In this document: positions 14,054 to 24,000 of the stretch, piece by piece
How the letters are laid out: each line of letters opens with the position of its first letter
Numbering within the stretch: the first letter of the stretch is position 1
DNA from: Treponemataceae bacterium
Lineage (GTDB): Bacteria > Spirochaetota > Spirochaetia > Treponematales > Rectinemataceae
Assembly (NCBI GenBank): GCA_963667725.2
Contig: CAXXHO010000005.1
Location: forward strand, 181,819 to 205,818
Length of the DNA: 24,000 nt
Direction of reading: 5' to 3'
Translations under genes and position numbers: made by a program
The notes under the pieces: model-generated
Seen by the model: the letters and a program-made list of their open reading frames with translations, nothing else
Told to the model about the DNA's origin: nothing
Databases searched by the model: none

Positions 14054-14851
14054 GTGCGAAAGATGACATTCATGCTTACGGTATTCGCCATGGTCTTCGC
14101 GATGGTCTTCGCCGCCGGCGCCCAAACCGCCAAGCTTCCCGACCTCAAGGGAAGAAAAATCATCGCCGTGACCGAAAACGCCTATCTCCCCCTCAATTTC
14201 GTCGACGCTAAATCAGGCAAGGCCATGGGATGGGAATACGACGCGGTGAACGAGATCGGCAAGCGTCTCAACGCCAAGATCGAGTGGAAGATCACTTCCT
14301 GGGACACCATGATCCAGGCCGTGCGCGACGGACAGTTCGACGTGGGCATGGACGGCATCACCATAACGGACGAAAGGAAGGGCCAGGTCGACTTCTCCAG
14401 CCCCTACATGGTGAGCCAGCAGTTCATGCTCGTGCGCGCCAGCGAAAACCGCTTCCAGGACGAAAAGGCCTTCTCGGCCAACCCCAAACTCCTCATCGGG
14501 GCCCAGGCGGGCACCACGAACTTCTATGTGGCCGTCTACAGCGTCCTCGACGGCGACGAAGCCAATCCCCGCATCAAGCTTTTCGAGACCTTCGGCGCCA
14601 CGGTCCAGGCCTTGATAGCCGGAGACATCGATATGGTGCTTATGGACGCCGCCTCCAGCAAGGGCTACATCGGCGCCTACCCCAACAAGCTGAAATCGGT
14701 CGGCGGCGCCCTCGGCACCGAAGAATTCGGATTCATCTTCAAGAAAGGTTCCGACCTCGTCGGCCCCTTCAACGCGGCCATCGCCGCCCTCAAGGCCGAG
14801 GGATTCCTCGACAGGCTTAACACGAAGTGGTTCTTCGAGTACAAGCCTTAA
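14054..14851 (+). CDS. Amino-acid ABC transporter substrate-binding protein (SBP_bac_3 family)
   Basis: 265 aa. AAGGAGG lies 6 nt upstream of the GTG at 14054 (an alternative ATG is at 14063). The signal peptide is MTFMLTVFAMVFAMVFAAGAQT. Family blocks include GWEYDAVNEIGKRLN, WDTMIQAVRDGQFDVGMDGITITDERK, VDFSSPY and LNTKWF. Confidence 0.9.
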   Translation: MRKMTFMLTVFAMVFAMVFAAGAQTAKLPDLKGRKIIAVTENAYLPLNFVDAKSGKAMGWEYDAVNEIGKRLNAKIEWKITSWDTMIQAVRDGQFDVGMDGITITDERKGQVDFSSPYMVSQQFMLVRASENRFQDEKAFSANPKLLIGAQAGTTNFYVAVYSVLDGDEANPRIKLFETFGATVQALIAGDIDMVLMDAASSKGYIGAYPNKLKSVGGALGTEEFGFIFKKGSDLVGPFNAAIAALKAEGFLDRLNTKWFFEYKP

Positions 14852-15082: not shown

Positions 15083-15098
15083 TGGCATGGGCTTTGCT
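15083..15098 (+). promoter_or_regulatory. Sigma-54 (-24/-12) promoter
   Basis: TGGCAT-gggct-TTGCT matches TGGCAC-N5-TTGCW with correct GG-to-GC spacing (12 nt). It sits in an AT-rich 290-nt intergenic region, 44 nt upstream of the ATG at 15142 (RBS AAGGAGG at 15128..15134). A sigma-54 activator is encoded in the same cluster. Confidence 0.7.
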
Positions 15099-15141: not shown

Positions 15142-16074
15142 ATGAAACGAATCGTTGGCGTTCTTTTGTGCGCGTTGGTGCTGATAACCGGTGTTTCCGC
15201 CCAAGCCAAGAAGAAGCAGGTCGCCGTCTGTCTTCCTGGATCAGTCGAGTTCTTCGCCGTGGAGCGCAAAGGCATGGACAAGGCAGCCGCCGAGTTCAAC
15301 CTTCAGCTCACCTATTCCGACGCCGAATGGGACGCGGGAAAACAACTGAACCAGGTGGAGAATTTCGTGGCCAAGGGCGTGGACGCCATCATGCTCTGCT
15401 CCCGCGATCCTCTCGCCCTGCTTCCGGCGGTAAAAATGTGCAACGAAGCCAAGATCCCCCTCATTACGTTCACCAACACGCTCGGCTCCGACAAGAACGG
15501 ACAGTATCCCGGCGTCGTTACCTTCATTGGCATCAACGACCTCTCCTATGGCACCATGATGGGCAAGATGGCCAAACAGCTCCTGGGCGACAGAGCCGCG
15601 AACATCGTCCTCATCGAGGGTGAGCCTGGAACCAGCGCCCAGCGCATGAGAAACGACGGTTTCAGGGCCGAACTCGCGAACAGCAAGTACAAGATCATCT
15701 ACAGCCAGGCGATTCCCGGCTGGACCAAGGAAGGATCGCTCGCCGCCATGGAAGCCTTTCTCCAGAAAGGACAGGATTTCGATCTCGTCTCAGCCGAATG
15801 GACGGACGGCGCGGTCGCGGCTGCCAAAGCCATCAGGGAAGCCGGACTCAAGGGGAAATACATCACCGCCCTCGAGTATTCCAAGGCGCTCCAGGCCGAG
15901 ATCAAGGCTGGAAGCGTCAACATGACGGCCTACGCTTCCATCATAGACATGGGTTATCTGGCAGTCCAGAAAACCGCCGAATTCCTCTCCGGAAAGAAGA
16001 TCGATTCCTACATCGAAGTCATTCCCGTCATCGTCGACAAGAACAATGTGAGCAAACACGTTCCCGAGATGTGA
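15142..16074 (+). CDS. Sugar ABC transporter periplasmic binding protein (RbsB/PBP type-1 family)
   Basis: 310 aa. The signal peptide is MKRIVGVLLCALVLITGVSAQA. Blocks typical of ribose/monosaccharide binding proteins are present: VENFVAKGVDAIML, EAKIPLITF, IVLIEGEPGTSAQRMRNDGF, AMEAFLQK, GAVAAAKAIREAGL. Confidence 0.9.
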   Translation: MKRIVGVLLCALVLITGVSAQAKKKQVAVCLPGSVEFFAVERKGMDKAAAEFNLQLTYSDAEWDAGKQLNQVENFVAKGVDAIMLCSRDPLALLPAVKMCNEAKIPLITFTNTLGSDKNGQYPGVVTFIGINDLSYGTMMGKMAKQLLGDRAANIVLIEGEPGTSAQRMRNDGFRAELANSKYKIIYSQAIPGWTKEGSLAAMEAFLQKGQDFDLVSAEWTDGAVAAAKAIREAGLKGKYITALEYSKALQAEIKAGSVNMTAYASIIDMGYLAVQKTAEFLSGKKIDSYIEVIPVIVDKNNVSKHVPEM

Positions 16075-16092
16075 TCCCATCCTCCAACAGTC

Positions 16093-16124
16093 GGCGGGGA
16101 ATCCGCTTCGGTGGATTCCCCGCC
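16093..16124 (+). other. Intercistronic GC-rich stem-loop (no U-tract)
   Basis: GGCGGGGAATCC-gcttcggt-GGATTCCCCGCC has a perfect 12-bp stem. It lies between the binding-protein stop (16074) and the next ATG (16140). No T-run follows, so it is more likely an mRNA-stabilising or partial-attenuation element than a full terminator. Confidence 0.5.
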
Positions 16125-16139
16125 GCTCAAGAGAAAACA

Positions 16140-17405
16140 ATGGAACCTAAATCGATACGAAACGGCGGTAAAATCGCCGCGCAGCTGATGGTCGGCCCCG
16201 AACAGCTGGCCTATTTCGGCGAAGCCGGAATACTGGCATGTCTGGACTATGCGCTCGATGTCCTCGCTCCCCGGGAGCTGATTCTTTCCATAACCGATTC
16301 ATCGAGCGACCTGGCTCGAAAGATCACGGAGCGCTGTGACAAGGTGGGTACAAGGGTTTCTCTATGGGTGATGGTTTTCGCCGACCGCCCCGCCGGCCTG
16401 TCTTCTTTTCCCCATGTCCAGGACGCTGAAGGCAGGACGGGATACGGCGCCACCGGCGCCTGGGAGAATATCGGAAAGGGCGACGAAAAGTTCCTATTCT
16501 ATTGTCCCAGCGCCCTGGATAAGGACGAGAAAGGCATAGAATCCGCGCTTCGGGCGGCGAAATCCATTGGCGCGCGGGGCATCTTCCTCGACCGGATACG
16601 ATACCCCTCCCCCGCCAACGGCTTCGAATTCATGAGCGCCTGTTCCTGCCCCCTATGCAGGGAAGCCTTTCGCGCCTGGAGCGGCGAAAAATGGCCAGAC
16701 CTAGCTTCGCTCTTTGTCCGGCATGCGGCTCATGGCGTCGGCGGCCCTCAAGCCTTCGTCGAGAGCGCCGAGAAAGTACTTCAATTCCGCTCGCGGATGG
16801 TCAATAACGCGGTGGCGCGTTACGCCGATGCCGCTCACGCGGAGGGCCTCAGCGTCGGTCTGGATCTCTTCGCGCCCGCGTTGGCCGGTTTCGTCGGCCA
16901 AGATTATCATTCACTGTCGCGCCACGCGGATTTCATGAAACCGATGCTCTACTGCAAAGCCTGGGCGCCGGCAGGCATGCCCCTGGAATTTTTCCTTTTA
17001 ATGAAGGGGCTTGAAGAATCAGGCATCGACGCATCAACAGCCGTAAGCTTCGTTTCCAAGTTCTCCGGAATAGACCGAGAATACCTGGATGCCGTGCGCC
17101 GGAAAGGAAATTTCCCGGCTTCGCTCGCCGCATCAGAACTGCTCCGCTGTCAGCGGGAAATAGATCCCGCAGCGGCTCCAAAACCAGAAATCTACGCGGG
17201 CATCGAGCTGGTTCAGCACGAAGCCTACGATACTCAAATCGACGACGGTGTACGCGACTCGTACCTGGAAAGCCTCTCGGGCCAAAACATCGCCGTATGC
17301 TGGAATATATTGTACGTGCCCAAGCGGCATATCGAGGCGATAGCCTCGATGGACGCTATCGCGTCGATCGACGCGATTTCACCGCATCACGAGGACTCTA
17401 AATGA
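16140..17405 (+). CDS. Uncharacterised cytoplasmic protein, possibly a glycoside-hydrolase-like (beta/alpha)8 barrel
   Basis: The real start is the ATG at 16140 inside ORF 15798..17405 (421 aa). There is no signal peptide and no TM segments. ARGIFLDRIRYPSPANGFEFMSACSCPLCREAF resembles the G-x-x-x-D-Y-I-R-F/Y-P strand-4 block of DUF4015/GHL-type putative glycosidases, followed by a CxCxxC cluster. Its stop overlaps the ATPase start (ATGA at 17402). The function call is weak. Confidence 0.75.
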   Translation: MEPKSIRNGGKIAAQLMVGPEQLAYFGEAGILACLDYALDVLAPRELILSITDSSSDLARKITERCDKVGTRVSLWVMVFADRPAGLSSFPHVQDAEGRTGYGATGAWENIGKGDEKFLFYCPSALDKDEKGIESALRAAKSIGARGIFLDRIRYPSPANGFEFMSACSCPLCREAFRAWSGEKWPDLASLFVRHAAHGVGGPQAFVESAEKVLQFRSRMVNNAVARYADAAHAEGLSVGLDLFAPALAGFVGQDYHSLSRHADFMKPMLYCKAWAPAGMPLEFFLLMKGLEESGIDASTAVSFVSKFSGIDREYLDAVRRKGNFPASLAASELLRCQREIDPAAAPKPEIYAGIELVQHEAYDTQIDDGVRDSYLESLSGQNIAVCWNILYVPKRHIEAIASMDAIASIDAISPHHEDSK

Positions 17406-18946
17406 ACATTCAAGAAAATTTGCGAACGCCAGAGGGCGGAAATGCGGCTGCCCCTCCCGTCATTCTCGCGATGAAGAACATTTCAAAAAGCTTCCTGGGC
17501 GTCCGGGTATTGGACAACGTCGATTTCTATCTCAGAAAAGGCGAAGTCGTCGCTTTTCTCGGCGCCAACGGAGCGGGAAAATCGACGCTCATGAAGATTC
17601 TCTCCGGCGTCTATAACGCGGACAGCGGCCAGATATTCCTTCACGACAAACCGGTTCAATTCAGCAAACCGATCCATGCCTACAGGGCGGGAATCAGCGT
17701 CGTGCACCAGGAATCGAGCCTCATTCCCACCCTGACCATCATCGAAAATCTATTTCTCGGCCGTGAATCCACAAAGGGTTCGGGGATACTGAACGGCAAG
17801 CTCATGCAAGCTGAATACGAAAAGCTCTGCGAACGTTTCGATTTGGATATTCCCTCCGCGACGAAGGTACGCGATCTCAGCCCCGCGCAGAAAAAAATGG
17901 CCGAGATAATGAAGGCGGTGTCGCGCAACTGCAGCATCATCATAATGGATGAGCCCACCGACGCTCTCAGCTCCCAGGAAACCGCCCTCCTGTTCAAAAC
18001 CGTCGGTGACCTTAGGCGCGAGGGCATGAGCATCGTTTTCATAACGCATTTTCTGGACGAAGTAAAAAGCATCGCCGACAGCGCGACGGTGATCCGCGAC
18101 GGGAAAATAGTCGCCGAGCGCGTCTCGCCTCTTCTGCCGATCAAGGAAATAGTCACCTTGATGCTCGGCAAGGAAGTGGCGGAACGAAAACCCTTCGTAA
18201 GGGCTCATGGCGAAAAGGAAGAGCTGGTGGTAAAGAACCTCGGCCGCCGCGCCGAATTTTCGGATATTTCATTCGAACTTCACGCGGGCGAAGTGCTCGG
18301 AATCGCCGGCGTCGTGGGATCGGGCAAGACGGAACTGGCGAGGACACTCTCAGGCGCATCGGTCAGCCACAGCGGTTCCATGACACTGGAGAACAGACCG
18401 ATACAGCTCCGTTCCCCATACGATGGGGTCAAGCATGGTATCGGCATGGCGCCGGAAGACCGTAAAACGCAGGGACTGATCCTCGACCATGACATTCAAG
18501 GCAATATTTCCCTTTCATCCCTGCCCAGCATCGTCAAGTTCGGATGCATCAACGCAAAAAAGGAAAAAAGCCGTACGATGTCTGTGGCCGCCCAACTTTC
18601 GATAAAGTTCGCCAGCCTTGATCAGCGGGTAAAATTCCTGAGCGGCGGCAACCAGCAGAAATGCGTTCTGGCTCGATGGCTGCTGGCCTCCCCGAAGGTT
18701 CTTATTCTGGATGAGCCCACGCGCGGCATCGATGTCGCCACGAAGGAACAGATCTACGCGACGGTGCGCGATCTCGCGTCGAAAGGAAAATCCATCATCT
18801 ATTTCTCTGGAGATCCCGCCGAACTCCTTGTGGTCTCCGACAGGGTGTTGGTTATGCAAAAAGGGAAGATCAAGCGTTCTTACGCGATTCCGCCATCTGA
18901 AGATATACTACTAAAAGATATGATTGAGGTGAACAATGAGCGGTAA
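17402..18946 (+). CDS. Sugar ABC transporter ATP-binding protein with tandem NBDs (CUT2, RbsA/MglA-like)
   Basis: 514 aa. NBD1 has GANGAGKST, AGISVVHQESSLIPTLTIIENLFLGR, LSPAQKKMAEI, IIIMDEPTDALS and FITH. NBD2 has GVVGSGKTELA, LSGGNQQKCVLARWL and LILDEPTRGIDV. Confidence 0.95.
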   Translation: MNIQENLRTPEGGNAAAPPVILAMKNISKSFLGVRVLDNVDFYLRKGEVVAFLGANGAGKSTLMKILSGVYNADSGQIFLHDKPVQFSKPIHAYRAGISVVHQESSLIPTLTIIENLFLGRESTKGSGILNGKLMQAEYEKLCERFDLDIPSATKVRDLSPAQKKMAEIMKAVSRNCSIIIMDEPTDALSSQETALLFKTVGDLRREGMSIVFITHFLDEVKSIADSATVIRDGKIVAERVSPLLPIKEIVTLMLGKEVAERKPFVRAHGEKEELVVKNLGRRAEFSDISFELHAGEVLGIAGVVGSGKTELARTLSGASVSHSGSMTLENRPIQLRSPYDGVKHGIGMAPEDRKTQGLILDHDIQGNISLSSLPSIVKFGCINAKKEKSRTMSVAAQLSIKFASLDQRVKFLSGGNQQKCVLARWLLASPKVLILDEPTRGIDVATKEQIYATVRDLASKGKSIIYFSGDPAELLVVSDRVLVMQKGKIKRSYAIPPSEDILLKDMIEVNNER

Positions 18947-19946
18947 CAATATCGATGCTAAGGCAGCGGCAACCATTCAAGCGGGCGGTATGGATGCCTC
19001 AAAGAAGAGGGGGCAGTACTACAAAGAAATTTTAAAACGCTACGGCCTGCTCATCAGCTTCTTTGTGCTCTCGCTGGGGATATCCCTGCTGACGCCCAAC
19101 TTCCTCTCCTCCAGGAACCTGCTCAACATCCTCAGGCAGAGTACGATCGTCGGCATCATGGCCATAGGCACCACCTTCGTCATCATCGGTGGCGGATTCG
19201 ATATCTCGGTCGGATCGGTGCTTGCCTTGTCCGCGGCGTTGGCGCTCGGGCTCCAAGGCTCGATGCACTGGGCCTTGGCCGCCACGATCGCTATCCTCGC
19301 CGGCGCGCTGATAGGTCTCTTCAATGGTATTCTCGCCGCGAAGATTCACATCGTTCCCATGATTGCGACGTTGGGTACCTCCACCATCGTACGCGGCCTC
19401 GTCTACCTCTATACCGGCGGCTACCCCATCAACGGTCAGCAGCCAGCCTTCGAGGTGATCGGCTCCGGCTATCTGTGGGGCATCCCCGTACCCGTCATCA
19501 TAATGATCGCGCTTGTCGTCATTTTTCAATTCATTCTCTCCAAGACGCAGCTCGGCCGCTACTGCTGCGCCGTCGGCGGCAACAAGGAAGCGACGAGGCT
19601 CGCCGGCGTCTCCGTGGACTTCTACCACGTCATGACTTTCCTCATCGGCGGTCTCATGGCGGGCATCTCGGGCGTCGTCTATGCGTCGCGGCTTTCGTCG
19701 GCCACGCCCCTAGCGGGGCAGAATTACGACATGGACGCCATCGCGGCGGTGGTCATCGGCGGCACATCGGTTTCAGGCGGCGAAGGCACGGTTCTCGGCG
19801 CCATGATAGGCGTCCTTCTTCTCACCGTCGTCACCAACGCCTTCAATCTCCTCGGCGTGCCGGTCTTCATCCAGTACGTCATAAAGGGCCTGATCATCCT
19901 GGTCGTCGTGGGCATCGACTCCTACTCCAAGAAGAGGCCCCGCTAA
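18936..19946 (+). CDS. Sugar ABC transporter permease (RbsC/BPD_transp_2 family)
   Basis: 336 aa. It overlaps the ATPase stop by 11 nt and has ~10 hydrophobic segments. Family blocks include NLLNILRQSTIVGIMAIGTTFVIIGGGFDISVGS, TLGTSTIVRGL, GGNKEATRLAGV and DAIAAVVIGGTSVSGGEGTV. Confidence 0.9.
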   Translation: MSGNNIDAKAAATIQAGGMDASKKRGQYYKEILKRYGLLISFFVLSLGISLLTPNFLSSRNLLNILRQSTIVGIMAIGTTFVIIGGGFDISVGSVLALSAALALGLQGSMHWALAATIAILAGALIGLFNGILAAKIHIVPMIATLGTSTIVRGLVYLYTGGYPINGQQPAFEVIGSGYLWGIPVPVIIMIALVVIFQFILSKTQLGRYCCAVGGNKEATRLAGVSVDFYHVMTFLIGGLMAGISGVVYASRLSSATPLAGQNYDMDAIAAVVIGGTSVSGGEGTVLGAMIGVLLLTVVTNAFNLLGVPVFIQYVIKGLIILVVVGIDSYSKKRPR

Positions 19947-19997: not shown

Positions 19998-21377
19998 ATG
20001 AAAACGAAGGTACTTATCGTCGACGACGAGCAGCCCATGAGGGCTTCGCTCGGCGAACTCTTGCAGAGTGAAGGCTACCAGACGATGTTGGCGGACGGCG
20101 CATCTTCCGCGCTCGAACAGACCAGCGACGGCCATCCCGACATAGCCATCGTGGACGTGCGCATGCCGGGCCGCGGCGGCCTAGACCTCATCCAGGAGCT
20201 CCGCGATATATCCCCCAACCTCAGGATTTTCATGATGACAGGCTACCCGTCCGTGGAAACCGCGGTGTTGGCCATGAAATACGGCGCAATGGACTTTTTC
20301 ACCAAGCCGCTGGATTTCAGGAAGCTGCGTGACCAGCTGAATCAATGCAAAATGGCAGGCGCCAATCAGCAGCCGGAAACGCCCAATCATGCCGTCGGCG
20401 CCCTCTACGGAGAAAGCCTGGTCATTCGCGAACTGCGGGAATCGATCGAGCGCATCGCCCCCACGGAAGCCTCCGTCATCATCACGGGCGAAAGCGGCAC
20501 GGGAAAAGAATTAGTAGCCGAAGCCATACACAGCCAATCACTGCGTTCCGCCCATCCTTTCATGAAGATCAACTGCGCGGCGATACCTGACACACTTCTC
20601 GAAAGCGAGCTGTTCGGCTATGAAAAAGGTGCCTTCACGGGCGCTCTTGCCCGAAAAGCGGGGCTTTTCGAAAGCGCCAGTCAGGGCAGCGTCTTCCTCG
20701 ATGAAATCGGGGATATGGACATCCGCCTTCAGTCGAAACTCCTTCATATACTTCAGGGAGGGGAATTCCGCAGGTTGGGCGGCACAAAGGACCTCAACGC
20801 CAATACCCGGATCATATCGGCGACCAACCAGAACCTGCATACGCTCATCGAAAAAGGCATGTTCAGGGAAGACCTTTATTACCGGCTCTCGGTGATATGC
20901 ATCCAGACTCCCCCGCTTCGCGAGCATATAGAGGACATTCCCGCGCTCGCGAAACGCTTCGTCGCCGATTTTTCGCGTTCATACGGCAAGGAAGAACCCC
21001 TCATCGACGATGAGTTCCTGGCTATCCTCGAGGCGCAGCCCTGGCCCGGAAATGTCCGTGAGCTGAAAAACTGCATCGAGCGCGCCATCATCTTCTGTGA
21101 CGGTCGCCATCTCGGCACTCGCCATCTTCCGCAGCAGTACAAGATGGGAATTGGCAGAAATGTGGTCGTTTCCTGTCTCGATGAATCGAAGGAATCGGAT
21201 GCATCCCGGAATTCGATGAGCGAGGCGCGGCAGGACCTGGAACGCAGCATGATTCTTGAAGCGCTCGACAAGGCAAAGGGAAACAGGACGGAGGCCGCCA
21301 GGCTGCTTGGAATACCGCGACGAACCCTCTATAACAAGCTCGAAAGGCTTGGCATGGACGACGATGCAAGGTCTTGA
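19998..21377 (+). CDS. Sigma-54-dependent response regulator (NtrC family: REC, AAA+, Fis-type HTH)
   Basis: 459 aa. The REC domain reads VLIVDDEQPMR...IAIVDVRMPGRGGL...KPL. The AAA+ domain has GESGTGKELVAEAIH, the GAFTGA loop (EKGAFTGA), VFLDEIGDM and RVIS-type RIISATN. The C-terminal HTH is GNRTEAARLLGIPRRTLYNKLERLG. Confidence 0.95.
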   Translation: MKTKVLIVDDEQPMRASLGELLQSEGYQTMLADGASSALEQTSDGHPDIAIVDVRMPGRGGLDLIQELRDISPNLRIFMMTGYPSVETAVLAMKYGAMDFFTKPLDFRKLRDQLNQCKMAGANQQPETPNHAVGALYGESLVIRELRESIERIAPTEASVIITGESGTGKELVAEAIHSQSLRSAHPFMKINCAAIPDTLLESELFGYEKGAFTGALARKAGLFESASQGSVFLDEIGDMDIRLQSKLLHILQGGEFRRLGGTKDLNANTRIISATNQNLHTLIEKGMFREDLYYRLSVICIQTPPLREHIEDIPALAKRFVADFSRSYGKEEPLIDDEFLAILEAQPWPGNVRELKNCIERAIIFCDGRHLGTRHLPQQYKMGIGRNVVVSCLDESKESDASRNSMSEARQDLERSMILEALDKAKGNRTEAARLLGIPRRTLYNKLERLGMDDDARS

Positions 21378-23238
21378 GCTCCGTGGCGTCACGGCTTCCT
21401 ACAGGGAGACGATAGCCCTCGATGAGTTCAGCCTGATAGCGGCGAGCGGCGAAGTGCATGCCATCATCGGGGAACGCAGGGCGGGAAAATCATGTATCGT
21501 TTCCCTCCTCGAAGGAAAGATGACCCTCAATAAAGGCAAGATTCTCATCGATGGCATCCCCCTGGCGAAACGCAATCCAAAGATTATGGCCCAGGCTGGT
21601 ATTGGCGTTTTCCATCAAACGCAAAACATCATTCCCACACTTTTGCCCTGGGAAAACATCATGGCCGGGAGGATGCCCATCGGTTTTTCATCGGGCAACA
21701 AGCGCGATGAAACTGAGGCCTTTATCCTGACGCTCTGCGAAAAGTGGAGTCTCCGTCCAGATCTGCGCCTGCCTATGCATCGACTGACGAGAATAGAATC
21801 CACCGTTATCGAGCTTGGGCGAGCCTTGGCGTTCAATCCAAGGATCCTTATCCTGGATGAGCCTTCCGGTCGCTTTACCGCCGATGAGATGCAGGTCCTC
21901 TATTCCGTGCTGGCGGAAAGGCGGAGCGGCAATGAGGCAGTTCTCTATGCGGCCTCCAATGTCGACGAGGTGCTGAGGATCGCCGATATCATCTCGATTA
22001 TAAAAGCGGGGAAAATTGTGGAAACCCAGCCGGCAAGAAGCCTGGACCGAGAGGACATTGTCGATCTCGCCTATTCTTTCAACGAGTCGAGGGAAGAGCT
22101 GTTCAGCAAGAACATTCGCCTGTTGAAATACAAGAAGTACAATGAGGAAATAGTCTCCAATCTCCCGCTGGGAACGGTCTTTTTCGACGGGGAAGGCGAA
22201 ATATACCTTTCCAATCAATCAGCCTGCGACATTATCTGCACGGATCCAAAAACGTTGATTCCCGCGTCAAAGGCGGGAGAACCTGCTGCGGCGATTCCAC
22301 TTACCGCCTTGGCGCTGCGGAATGGTTTCGGCGATAAACGACTGGCGCTGATCATGGATTCCATAAGATCGGGAGTATCGGCGAAATGGAAACAGTGGCC
22401 GACGGCAAACGGCAGATTCGTCAACGTGATGACCTACCCCTTCCACGATAGTTTGAAGCAGCTATTCGGAACCATCCTCGTACTTCAGGACGTAACGGAA
22501 GAGAGGGCGACGCGGGACTATCTGGCAAGCCTTGACCGAACTTCGTCCATCGCCCAGCTGGCGACGGGCATAGTTCACGAAGTGAACAATCCTCTCGGCA
22601 TCATTTCCAACTATGTGGAACTCCTGCTCATGAAGACAAACGACGAGTATGCTCGTGAAAGGCTCGAAATTATCCGAAATGAAATAAAGCGAATTCATGG
22701 AAGCATGCTCAATCTCCTGTCCTTTTCGAGCGTCGATTCGTCAGCATTGAGCCCGCATGACATCAACGCGGTCATCAAGGATTCGCTTGTCCTGCTTGAA
22801 TACGAAGCGGAACGTCTCGGCATCAGCCTGGAAGCTGATATACCTAGCGAACCGGTGATGCTGCGCATAGATCCCGCCAGAATCAAACAAGTCCTGATCA
22901 ATCTCCTCATGAATGCGCTCGATGTTGCGGGACGATGTGGTTCCATAGTAGTCCGACTTCGAAAGCAGGCCGATAATAGCGCCCTCCTGCAGGTACAGGA
23001 CAGCGGCCCCGGCATCCCGCCCGCCAAGATCGCCAGTCTTTTCACGCCCTTCCTGAGCGAAAAAAGCGGAAGCGGACATGCCGGACTTGGTCTTTCAATC
23101 TGCAAGCATATAACGGAAGTCCATGGCGGCAGGATTTGGTGCGAAAGCGAACCGGGCAATACCGTCTTTTTCATTGAACTACCCTGCGAGGGACCAATGC
23201 AGGTAAAAGGACCGCATTATGCGCAGACCGCGAATTAA
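21364..23238 (+). CDS. Soluble sensor histidine kinase with an N-terminal ABC-ATPase-like (CUT2 NBD1-type, degenerate) domain, then PAS, HisKA and HATPase_c
   Basis: The start is the ATG at 21364 inside ORF 21256..23238 (624 aa); it overlaps the regulator stop by 14 nt. Residues 1-~235 are colinear with NBD1 of the ATPase at 17402. Examples: GEVHAIIGERRAGKS vs GEVVAFLGANGAGKS; AGIGVFHQTQNIIPTLLPWENIMAGR vs AGISVVHQESSLIPTLTIIENLFLGR; ILILDEPSGRFTADE vs IIIMDEPTDALSSQE. A PAS-like region spans aa ~255-385. The H-box is IVHEVNNPLGII, the N box LINLLMNALDV, G1 VQDSGPGIP and G2 GHAGLGLSI. I saw no hydrophobic TM segment. Confidence 0.9.
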   Translation: MQGLELRGVTASYRETIALDEFSLIAASGEVHAIIGERRAGKSCIVSLLEGKMTLNKGKILIDGIPLAKRNPKIMAQAGIGVFHQTQNIIPTLLPWENIMAGRMPIGFSSGNKRDETEAFILTLCEKWSLRPDLRLPMHRLTRIESTVIELGRALAFNPRILILDEPSGRFTADEMQVLYSVLAERRSGNEAVLYAASNVDEVLRIADIISIIKAGKIVETQPARSLDREDIVDLAYSFNESREELFSKNIRLLKYKKYNEEIVSNLPLGTVFFDGEGEIYLSNQSACDIICTDPKTLIPASKAGEPAAAIPLTALALRNGFGDKRLALIMDSIRSGVSAKWKQWPTANGRFVNVMTYPFHDSLKQLFGTILVLQDVTEERATRDYLASLDRTSSIAQLATGIVHEVNNPLGIISNYVELLLMKTNDEYARERLEIIRNEIKRIHGSMLNLLSFSSVDSSALSPHDINAVIKDSLVLLEYEAERLGISLEADIPSEPVMLRIDPARIKQVLINLLMNALDVAGRCGSIVVRLRKQADNSALLQVQDSGPGIPPAKIASLFTPFLSEKSGSGHAGLGLSICKHITEVHGGRIWCESEPGNTVFFIELPCEGPMQVKGPHYAQTAN

Positions 23239-24000
23239 GCAGACGGCGCTGGATCGCATCCCCTGGTGGCTCGTCGCCATCGTAGGCCTAGGGGGCTGGC
23301 TCCTCGCGTCCGCCATGGCCACGGCCGATTATCGCGTCATATTCGGCGCCGTATCCCGCGGCCTCGGCGTCACGCTGATGGTATCGCTCATCGCGTATGC
23401 CGCATCGATACTGTTCGGTCTAGGGCTGGGGCTTCTGCGCGCTTCGCGGCTTCGCGCCGCACGCGAAGCCGCGACCTTCTACATCGAGCTGGTACGCGGC
23501 CTTCCAATGCTCGTCATTCTGTACTACATAGCATTCGTTGGCGCTCCCGCCCTAGCTCAAGCGCTCAACGTCATCCTGACCCCACTCATCGCGACGGGGC
23601 TCATCGGCCGCGTCGAAGCGCGCAGCTTCGATTTCGCCACGCGCGCCGTCCTGGCCCTCACCCTCGGCTACTCGGCTTTCATCGCGGAAATCTTCCGCGC
23701 GGGCATAGAGAGCGTGGACAAAGGCCAGGTCGAAGCCGCCGAAGCCCTCGGGATGTCACATCTTCAGGTGATGTGCCGCATCGTTCTGCCCCAAGCCATC
23801 AAGAATGTCCTGCCCGCCCTCGGCAACGAATTCGTCGCCATCATCAAGGATTCCTCCCTGGTCTCGGCCCTCGGCGTCCAGGATATCACCCAGCTGGGCA
23901 AGGTCTATGCCGCGTCCACTTTCAAATTTTTCGAGACTTACAACGCCGTCGCGTTCTTCTACCTCTGCCTCACGCTCAGCCTATCCCTTCTCGTGCGAGC
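23219..24000 (+). CDS. Amino-acid ABC transporter permease (HisM/GlnP family), 3'-partial
   Basis: This gene is absent from the ORF track because it runs off the window. From the ATG at 23219 the translation reads MRRPRIKQTALDRIPWWLVAIVGLGGW...FYIELVRGLPMLVILYYIAF...AFIAEIFRAGIESVDKGQVEAAEALGMSHLQVMCRIVLPQAIKNVLPALGNEFVAIIKDSSLVSALGVQDIT. This contains the EAA loop and polar-amino-acid permease blocks. It overlaps the kinase stop by 20 nt. Confidence 0.85.
   Translation, partial: MRRPRIKQTALDRIPWWLVAIVGLGGWLLASAMATADYRVIFGAVSRGLGVTLMVSLIAYAASILFGLGLGLLRASRLRAAREAATFYIELVRGLPMLVILYYIAFVGAPALAQALNVILTPLIATGLIGRVEARSFDFATRAVLALTLGYSAFIAEIFRAGIESVDKGQVEAAEALGMSHLQVMCRIVLPQAIKNVLPALGNEFVAIIKDSSLVSALGVQDITQLGKVYAASTFKFFETYNAVAFFYLCLTLSLSLLVR

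Follow-up and report, generated by a model that had tools for sequence, protein, structure and literature searches.

A CUT2-type ABC nucleotide-binding domain fused to a soluble histidine kinase: invariant ATP-binding residues and recurrent loss of the H-loop histidine

What does a nucleotide-binding domain (NBD) of the ATP-binding cassette (ABC) type do at the N-terminus of a histidine kinase, and can it still bind and hydrolyse ATP? The question is raised by a gene in a 24,000-nucleotide (nt) stretch of Treponemataceae bacterium (assembly GCA_963667725.2, contig CAXXHO010000005.1, positions 181,819 to 205,818 of the forward strand), which was analysed as a whole and is called the window here. 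The gene encodes a kinase of 624 amino acids (aa) and lies behind the genes of a sugar ABC importer and a sigma-54-dependent response regulator. An earlier, sequence-only reading had proposed that the NBD kept its nucleotide-binding motifs and lost its catalytic and dimer-interface motifs. We find that this selective decay is real but narrower: across the homologues it comprises invariant binding residues, a recurrent loss of the H-loop His that is fixed in one subclade, and a degenerate signature that is inherited.

The open reading frame (ORF) of the kinase covers 21256-23238. The ATG at 21364, which overlaps the 3' end of the regulator gene by 14 nt, is the most likely start and gives the 624-aa protein, already on record with identical sequence (P0005). 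Its domain order is ABC NBD, helix, PAS, HisKA and HATPase_c:

21364..23238, + strand: soluble kinase gene, 624 aa (ORF, translation, Pfam, AlphaFold2 model)
21364..22074, + strand: NBD1-type ABC nucleotide-binding domain, residues 1-237 (Pfam, BLASTP, NCBIfam, AlphaFold2, Foldseek)
22075..22167, + strand: conserved helical linker between NBD and PAS, residues 238-268 (helix 243-265 in the model; 40% mean pairwise identity)
22168..23187, + strand: PAS-like domain (about 269-376), DHp, and CA domain (about 456-608) (Pfam, AlphaFold2, Foldseek)

Pfam matches were obtained for ABC_tran (residues 20-168, E = 1.6e-15, above the gathering score), HisKA (397-459, E = 7.8e-10) and HATPase_c (503-608, E = 1.3e-26); no NCBIfam model reaches its cut-off on the kinase or spans the fusion of NBD and kinase. 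AlphaFold2, run with 52 homologues, gave a model of mean pLDDT 83 in which the NBD (residues 1-237) is predicted confidently, with block-mean values mostly of 84-96 across residues 1-230; its PAS-like domain covers 270-376 and its CA domain 463-608. Foldseek matched the N-terminal half to whole NBDs (LptB, TM 0.83-0.84; 1ji0, 0.81) and the C-terminal half to PAS-containing kinases (YF1, ZraS, HK853). The DHp helices (378-452 in the model) carry His405 (nt 22576-22578), which is invariant among the 52 homologues together with N513, N517 and G574-L577, so that the H-box and the N and G boxes of a HisKA-type kinase are present. The layout is fully soluble and a membrane segment is absent from the model.

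To place the domain, homologues were collected in several ways. The first search returned 52 clusters of the same architecture at 29-100% identity, whose source names, where given, are Spirochaetota. The fusion was found in 13 of the 401 Spirochaetota genomes searched, and the genome of the window holds a second copy at 29% identity. Searching with this paralogue yielded 117 further full-length clusters, a few of which are named outside Spirochaetota (KSB3/Moduliflexus, Vecturithrix, Desulfomarina). A phmmer search with the NBD alone against 1.84 billion representatives was dominated by double-NBD ATPases and gave only about seven new fusion members. Scanning the genome contigs by H-box pattern returned mostly generic kinases, with full-length fusions only in L001-L003. 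A tree was built from 194 kinase NBDs, 80 NBD1 and 80 NBD2 of CUT2 sugar-importer ATPases. In it the kinase NBDs, 194 of 194, group together in a single clade (support 1.0), apart from both NBD1 and NBD2.

Translation of 21469-21957 begins with GERRAGKS and finishes with LYAAS. The motifs and coordinates that the sequence-only reading had quoted for the kinase and the neighbouring ATPase were all correct. The nucleotide site, with counts over the 194 kinase NBDs, reads as follows:

21469..21492, + strand: Walker A GERRAGKS, residues 36-43; satisfies GxxxxGK[ST], with Arg for the usual Gly at the fourth position
21616..21618, + strand: Q-loop Gln85, in VFHQ; invariant (194/194)
21784..21804, + strand: signature-equivalent LTRIEST, residues 141-147; departs from LSGGQ
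21844..21861, + strand: Walker B ILILDE, residues 161-166, with the catalytic Glu166 retained; D165 in 194/194, E166 in 189/194
21865..21879, + strand: D-loop equivalent SGRFT, residues 168-172; Thr for the canonical Asp, as in CUT2 NBD1
21955..21957, + strand: H-loop position, with Ser198 instead of His (translation, family alignment)

Six positions (G36, G41, K42, S/T43, Q85 and D165) are invariant in 194/194 homologues, which range from 25 to 100% identity. The claim that the binding motifs are retained thus stands for Walker A, the Q-loop Gln and the Walker B Asp. The P-loop is invariant in this sense throughout the family, so that unconserved P-loops in the orthologues, the outcome that the sequence-only reading had named as refuting it, were not observed. 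Ordered by conservation within a non-redundant set, the invariant columns fall in the top 2% and K, S/T, Q, D and E in the top 2-10%, with His198 at the 49th percentile. Mean pairwise identity is 39% for the NBD, 40% for the CA domain, 40% for the linker helix and 27% for PAS. Since the NBD is conserved as strongly as the CA domain of the kinase, neutral decay of the NBD is ruled out, and these values indicate that the domain is under purifying selection. Judged by its residues, the window's NBD keeps what an NBD1 needs for Mg-ATP: the P-loop Gly/Gly/Lys/Ser, the aromatic A-loop Tyr, the Q-loop Gln and the Walker B Asp-Glu.

The loss of catalytic motifs is partial. The H-loop His is indeed gone (Ser198; 0/29 in the window's clade), but Glu166 is kept, as in 189 of the 194 kinase NBDs. 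The Walker B Glu is the catalytic base of ABC ATPases. That it had been listed among the binding motifs is a point of wording; not all catalytic residues are lost.

The H-loop His occurs in 137/194 kinase NBDs and its distribution requires at least 10 changes on the tree; in a smaller set of 71 kinase NBDs it was lost at least six times. The tree resolves the following clades:

Clade A, which holds the paralogue of the window's genome: P-loop GEHGAGK[ST], n = 127, His in 113
Clade B1: P-loop GEHRAGKS, n = 36, His in 24
Clade B2, the window's clade (support 0.93): P-loop GERR[AS]GKS, n = 29, His in 0 (Ser, Thr or Asn)

On this tree His was lost repeatedly as a derived change, which is fixed in the window's lineage but does not characterise the family. 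The original observation of His loss holds in that the position is relaxed in the family and invariant in CUT2 NBD1; as a family-wide trait it does not hold. Nor is the family catalytically decayed overall, since K, Q, D, E and His (113/127) persist in its largest clade. No correlation was seen between the Gly-to-Arg change in the P-loop and the loss of His. At the signature, Ser is found in 45/194 and the second Gly in 4/194 kinase NBDs. The window's clade follows the pattern L-[ST]-x-[ILV]-E-x-[STA], with Ile, Leu or Val at the second Gly in most members. The 117 clusters from the paralogue search are nearly all of clade A. Every one of them has DE (117/117), and they share a conserved signature re-specified as LNL[SP]D[RQ].

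The paralogue itself (G000:C3:373268-375055, identical to L106:9054-10925, minus strand) is a 623-aa kinase with a full NBD1 half-site (GEHGAGKS, Q, DE, ITHRI), in a clade of more than 117 clusters. A sigma-54 regulator, a -24/-12 element and a CUT2 transporter of its own accompany it. Two other family members, L104:10197-10948 and G077:C220:3485-5287 (L087/L103), seem to be defective: in one, the frame changes between the NBD start and residue ~57, which leaves Walker A out of the long frame, and the other has an in-frame TAA.

How much of the unusual motif pattern arose in the kinase depends on where the domain came from. BLASTP of the kinase NBD against the ATPase of its own operon gave an ungapped alignment with NBD1 (28% identity, E = 5e-28) and a weaker one with NBD2 (25%, E = 1e-12). 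Among NCBIfam models only the N-terminal halves of AraG, YtfR, XylG, RbsA and MglA were matched, all far below cut-off. These alignments indicate that the kinase NBD descends from NBD1 of CUT2 sugar-importer ATPases. Like the NBD1 of RbsA, XylG, AraG, MglA and YtfR, it combines a degenerate signature and Thr for the D-loop Asp with a conserved Walker A Lys, Q-loop Gln and Walker B Asp-Glu. It differs in being a single NBD fused to PAS-HisKA-HATPase_c, without NBD2 and in a clade of its own, rather than part of a double-NBD chain that energises a BPD_transp_2 permease. The caveat that NBD2 of CUT2 ATPases also naturally lacks the H-loop His was correct (23/23 in the window's genome) but does not apply, the kinase domain being of NBD1 type.

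For comparison, 81 CUT2 NBD1 and 80 NBD2 were examined, together with the 23 double-NBD CUT2 ATPases of the window's genome. The P-loop N-G and the H-loop His are present in 81/81 NBD1 of the comparison set and in 23/23 of the genome, where the NBD1 P-loop always reads G[EAQ]NGAGK[ST]. The NBD1 signature in these 23 is variable (Ser in 12, Thr in 8, Gly at the second-Gly position in 8), and NBD2 reads LSGGN.Q in all of them. The ATPase of the window's operon carries LSPAQKK and VFITHFLDEV in NBD1 and LSGGNQQ and YFSGD in NBD2, and what was seen in the 23 ATPases of the genome also applies to the transporters encoded beside the kinases. RbsA and NupO have likewise been described as carrying one degenerate site each (PMC11466899). 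Thr at the D-loop Asp position occurs in 53/71 kinase NBDs and 68/81 CUT2 NBD1, versus Asp in 80/80 NBD2, and is therefore an NBD1 trait.

Signature loss was considered as a kinase-specific feature and rejected, as the partner NBD1 and the 23 CUT2 ATPases of the genome are already degenerate there. For a domain of NBD1 type, the yardstick is the already drifted signature of real CUT2 NBD1, and by it the LT start of LTRIEST and its missing glycines are mostly inherited. Only two signature features are specific to the kinase: a bulky Ile has replaced the second Gly, and the terminal Gln is gone. These lie outside the NBD1 range; the rest falls within that range. The truly kinase-specific changes are those of the P-loop, where position 3 changed from N to H or R family-wide and position 4 from G to R in clade B, and neither substitution was seen in the 81 comparison NBD1 or in the 23 of the window's genome. 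In place of the GENGAGK[ST] P-loop and the H-loop His of the CUT2 NBD1 subclass, the window's kinase thus has R-R and Ser. The window's subclade combines three further changes: loss of the H-loop His, Ile/Leu/Val at the second Gly, and Arg at P-loop positions 3-4. As much of it is inherited from naturally asymmetric CUT2 ATPases, the motif pattern alone would be a modest result.

The genes around the kinase point to what it controls. All lie on one strand, in the order promoter, binding protein, 421-aa ORF, double-NBD ATPase, permease, sigma-54 regulator and kinase:

15083..15098, + strand: -24/-12 sigma-54 promoter TGGCAT-N5-TTGCT, 44 nt before the binding-protein ATG
15142..19946, + strand: CUT2 sugar ABC importer block (Pfam, NCBIfam)
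15142-16074, + strand: binding protein gene of the CUT2 importer (Pfam)
16140-17405, + strand: 421-aa ORF without Pfam or NCBIfam match; tblastn gave no homologue in 19 related loci
17402-18946, + strand: double-NBD ATPase gene (Pfam, NCBIfam)
18936-19946, + strand: permease gene (Pfam)
19998..21377, + strand: sigma-54-dependent response regulator, REC - AAA+ - HTH_8 (Pfam)

Conservation of this arrangement was assessed over 20 loci, i.e. the window and 19 related loci from 14 genomes. A homologue of the sigma-54 regulator lies directly upstream of the kinase in 20/20. CUT2 transporter genes occur within 9 kb in 18/19 related loci (19/20 with the window), with matches to both ATPase and permease in 17/20; among the transporter-linked loci, a single-NBD ATPase occurs in one, and in two the contig is short or cut and shows the transporter partly. 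A -24/-12 match (at most one mismatch) is present in 20/20 loci and faces the transporter operon in 19, at a background of about six stray matches in 342 kb. As regulator, transporter and facing promoter are conserved across the loci, control of the adjacent importer by kinase and regulator is well supported.

Together, these results suggest that an ATP-binding, hydrolysis-impaired NBD couples the state of the transporter to the kinase, a reading to which we assign a probability of about 55%. The window's NBD most likely binds ATP without running the canonical ATP-sandwich hydrolysis cycle. The second Gly of the signature contacts the gamma-phosphate in ABC proteins. In the window's clade canonical hydrolysis appears unlikely, because His is missing, a homodimer would offer no NBD2-type signature, and Ile occupies this gamma-phosphate contact. 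The NBD would act as the input module of the kinase and would probably dock on the permease of the adjacent CUT2 importer. Engagement of binding protein and substrate would then set an ATP-dependent NBD conformation, which would be passed via the conserved helical linker and the PAS domain to His405 of DHp, and the sigma-54 regulator would in turn activate transcription of the transporter operon from its -24/-12 promoter. The docking step is more speculative and is proposed from synteny and from the segment following the Q-loop (L-I-P-x-L..E-N), which is conserved as strongly as in the NBD1 of the partner transporters. In solved ABC importers, the segment after the Q-loop lines the coupling-helix groove.

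Human thymidylate kinase has the P-loop GVDRAGKS, with a catalytic Arg that contacts the phosphates (PMC3169407). With this precedent, Arg at position 4 of the P-loop is compatible with nucleotide binding and, by analogy, could supply phosphate contacts in cis. The likeness to the type I enzyme is limited to the Arg at the fourth position (G-x-x-R-x-G-K-S); fold class and function are unrelated, and it is a resemblance only. A more specific proposal would have the soluble kinase sense extracellular sugar through an NBD plugged into the permease, hydrolysis-dead and latched by ATP, with the P-loop arginines replacing in cis the gamma-phosphate contacts of the H-loop His and the partner signature, and with the His-containing paralogue as the ancestral, cycling state. 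We regard this as tentative and rather unlikely.

Several points weigh against coupling by a hydrolysis-impaired NBD. Nucleotide binding is a prediction from conservation, and the A-loop aromatic residue is found in only 48 of 71 kinase NBDs. Retention of the catalytic Glu, and of His in the largest clade including the paralogue, suggests that hydrolysis may matter for the family, and the window's kinase may itself retain some ATP turnover. The complete double-NBD motor ATPase of the operon would compete for the same sites on the permease, and sequence searches of the Protein Data Bank returned no structure of a CUT2 permease or double-NBD ATPase with which docking residues could be compared. 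Lastly, one locus (L112) has the regulator, the kinase and the sigma-54 promoter with no transporter nearby.

The retained Glu also opens the way to a working ATPase, with Glu166 as base, Arg38/Arg39 or Ser198 in the place of the His and signature contacts, and turnover, for instance in an NBD homodimer, timing or gating autophosphorylation. Histidine kinases are dimers, so that two NBDs would sit close together, His is kept in the sister clades (113/127 and 24/36), Glu in nearly the whole family (189/194), and type I thymidylate kinase uses an Arg of its P-loop in catalysis. However, none of the 104 real NBD1 examined lacks His, which the kinases have lost repeatedly; the aliphatic residue found at the second Gly in most of the window's clade should impede an ATP sandwich of the canonical kind; and a homodimer offers no LSGGN.Q of NBD2 type, so we consider active turnover of this kind unlikely. 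The NBD could also contact the motor ATPase in place of the permease: an NBD1-type half-site needs an NBD2-type LSGGN.Q, which is found only there, and the motor ATPase is present in nearly all loci, so that pairing, e.g. with the signature of its NBD2, could report its open or closed state. Yet the two NBDs of the motor are fused in one chain and pair together, with no evidence for swapping, and the motor of one locus (L098) has a single NBD. Contact of this type therefore seems quite improbable.

Equally, the invariance of the nucleotide-site residues would suit a free cytoplasmic sensor of nucleotide or energy charge that makes no contact with a transporter, the genomic linkage then reflecting the regulatory target only, as the L112 pair without an adjacent transporter would allow. 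Against this stand the shared class of the kinase NBD and the NBD1 of the neighbouring transporter, the conserved coupling-groove segment and the transporter genes adjoining in 19/20 loci. The ATP concentrations at which ABC NBDs usually bind are far lower than those in the cell, and such a domain would make a poor energy gauge. On balance, a free sensor is improbable, if a little less so than pairing with the motor. A vestigial NBD that decays neutrally would account for a signature and an H-loop that depart from consensus, but was rejected: it is contradicted by conservation across the whole domain, like that of the CA domain and above that of PAS, by six invariant nucleotide-site residues over 194 sequences and by a fold predicted with high confidence, which leaves it barely credible.

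Coupling of transporter state to the kinase by an ATP-binding NBD can be compared with systems already described. In the degenerate nucleotide sites of asymmetric ABC proteins, such as site 2 of RbsA and NupO (PMC11466899) and the sites of heterodimeric exporters, the ATP-binding residues are likewise kept and the signature and H-loop have drifted. Such sites are thought to keep ATP bound and to hydrolyse it slowly or not at all. In such asymmetric proteins the degenerate site lies beside a consensus site in a working transporter, whereas the kinase NBD is detached from the motor. In BceAB-BceS, a two-component kinase appears to need an ABC transporter as co-sensor and controls the expression of that transporter (PMC9169098). 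For the window's kinase, such dependence on the transporter is hypothetical; what it shares is genomic linkage to transporter genes (19/20 loci) and a promoter arranged for their control. BceS itself sits in the membrane, where its transmembrane helices contact the permease; it has no NBD fusion and belongs to an exporter-type system that is not sigma-54 dependent. The two transmembrane helices of such intramembrane sensing are lacking in the domain layout and model of the window's kinase. In PstSCAB-PhoU-PhoR, too, a histidine kinase with a PAS domain is informed of the state of an ABC importer from its NBD side. The relay there consists of a separate PhoU and the true motor PstB, as opposed to an NBD paralogue held covalently in the kinase; the PstSCAB phosphate transporter itself is described in PMC12976172.

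Our literature searches found no paper describing a fusion of an NBD with a histidine kinase. If the proposed coupling is true, ABC nucleotide-binding domains have been reused as signalling inputs, and an importer would feed directly into a two-component phosphorelay, with no sensor that spans the membrane. The family would also offer a natural experiment on what an NBD requires for signalling as opposed to transport: within it, the ATP-binding residues do not change, the catalytic His is repeatedly discarded, and one genome holds a His-containing and a His-less paralogue side by side.

Some further observations concern individual loci. In the window, the motor ATPase (17402-18946) keeps the Walker A Lys (GVVGSGKT) and the Walker B DE in NBD2. 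This Lys is found in NBD2 of only 3/23 CUT2 ATPases of the genome, most of which have Arg or Gln, and the second site of this motor may be less degenerate than usual. At L112 (4904-7399, minus strand), from a Spirochaetota genome, the promoter beside the pair precedes a Big_5 / ice-binding-like (Ig-like) protein, and the kinase NBD also lacks the catalytic Glu and His (Walker B D-A, H-loop T-S-R). At L098 (3532-8884, minus strand), GatZ/KbaZ-like and PfkB genes come after the linked CUT2 transporter, which has a single-NBD ATPase of 265 aa, and suggest a sugar pathway of the tagatose or hexitol type. At the edges of the window's block, a BPD_transp_1 permease gene (23219-23998, + strand) overlaps the kinase stop by 20 nt and a family-3 solute-binding protein gene (14054-14851, + strand) lies just upstream; the sugar-transporter and two-component block thus seems to break up the genes of an amino-acid-type transporter.

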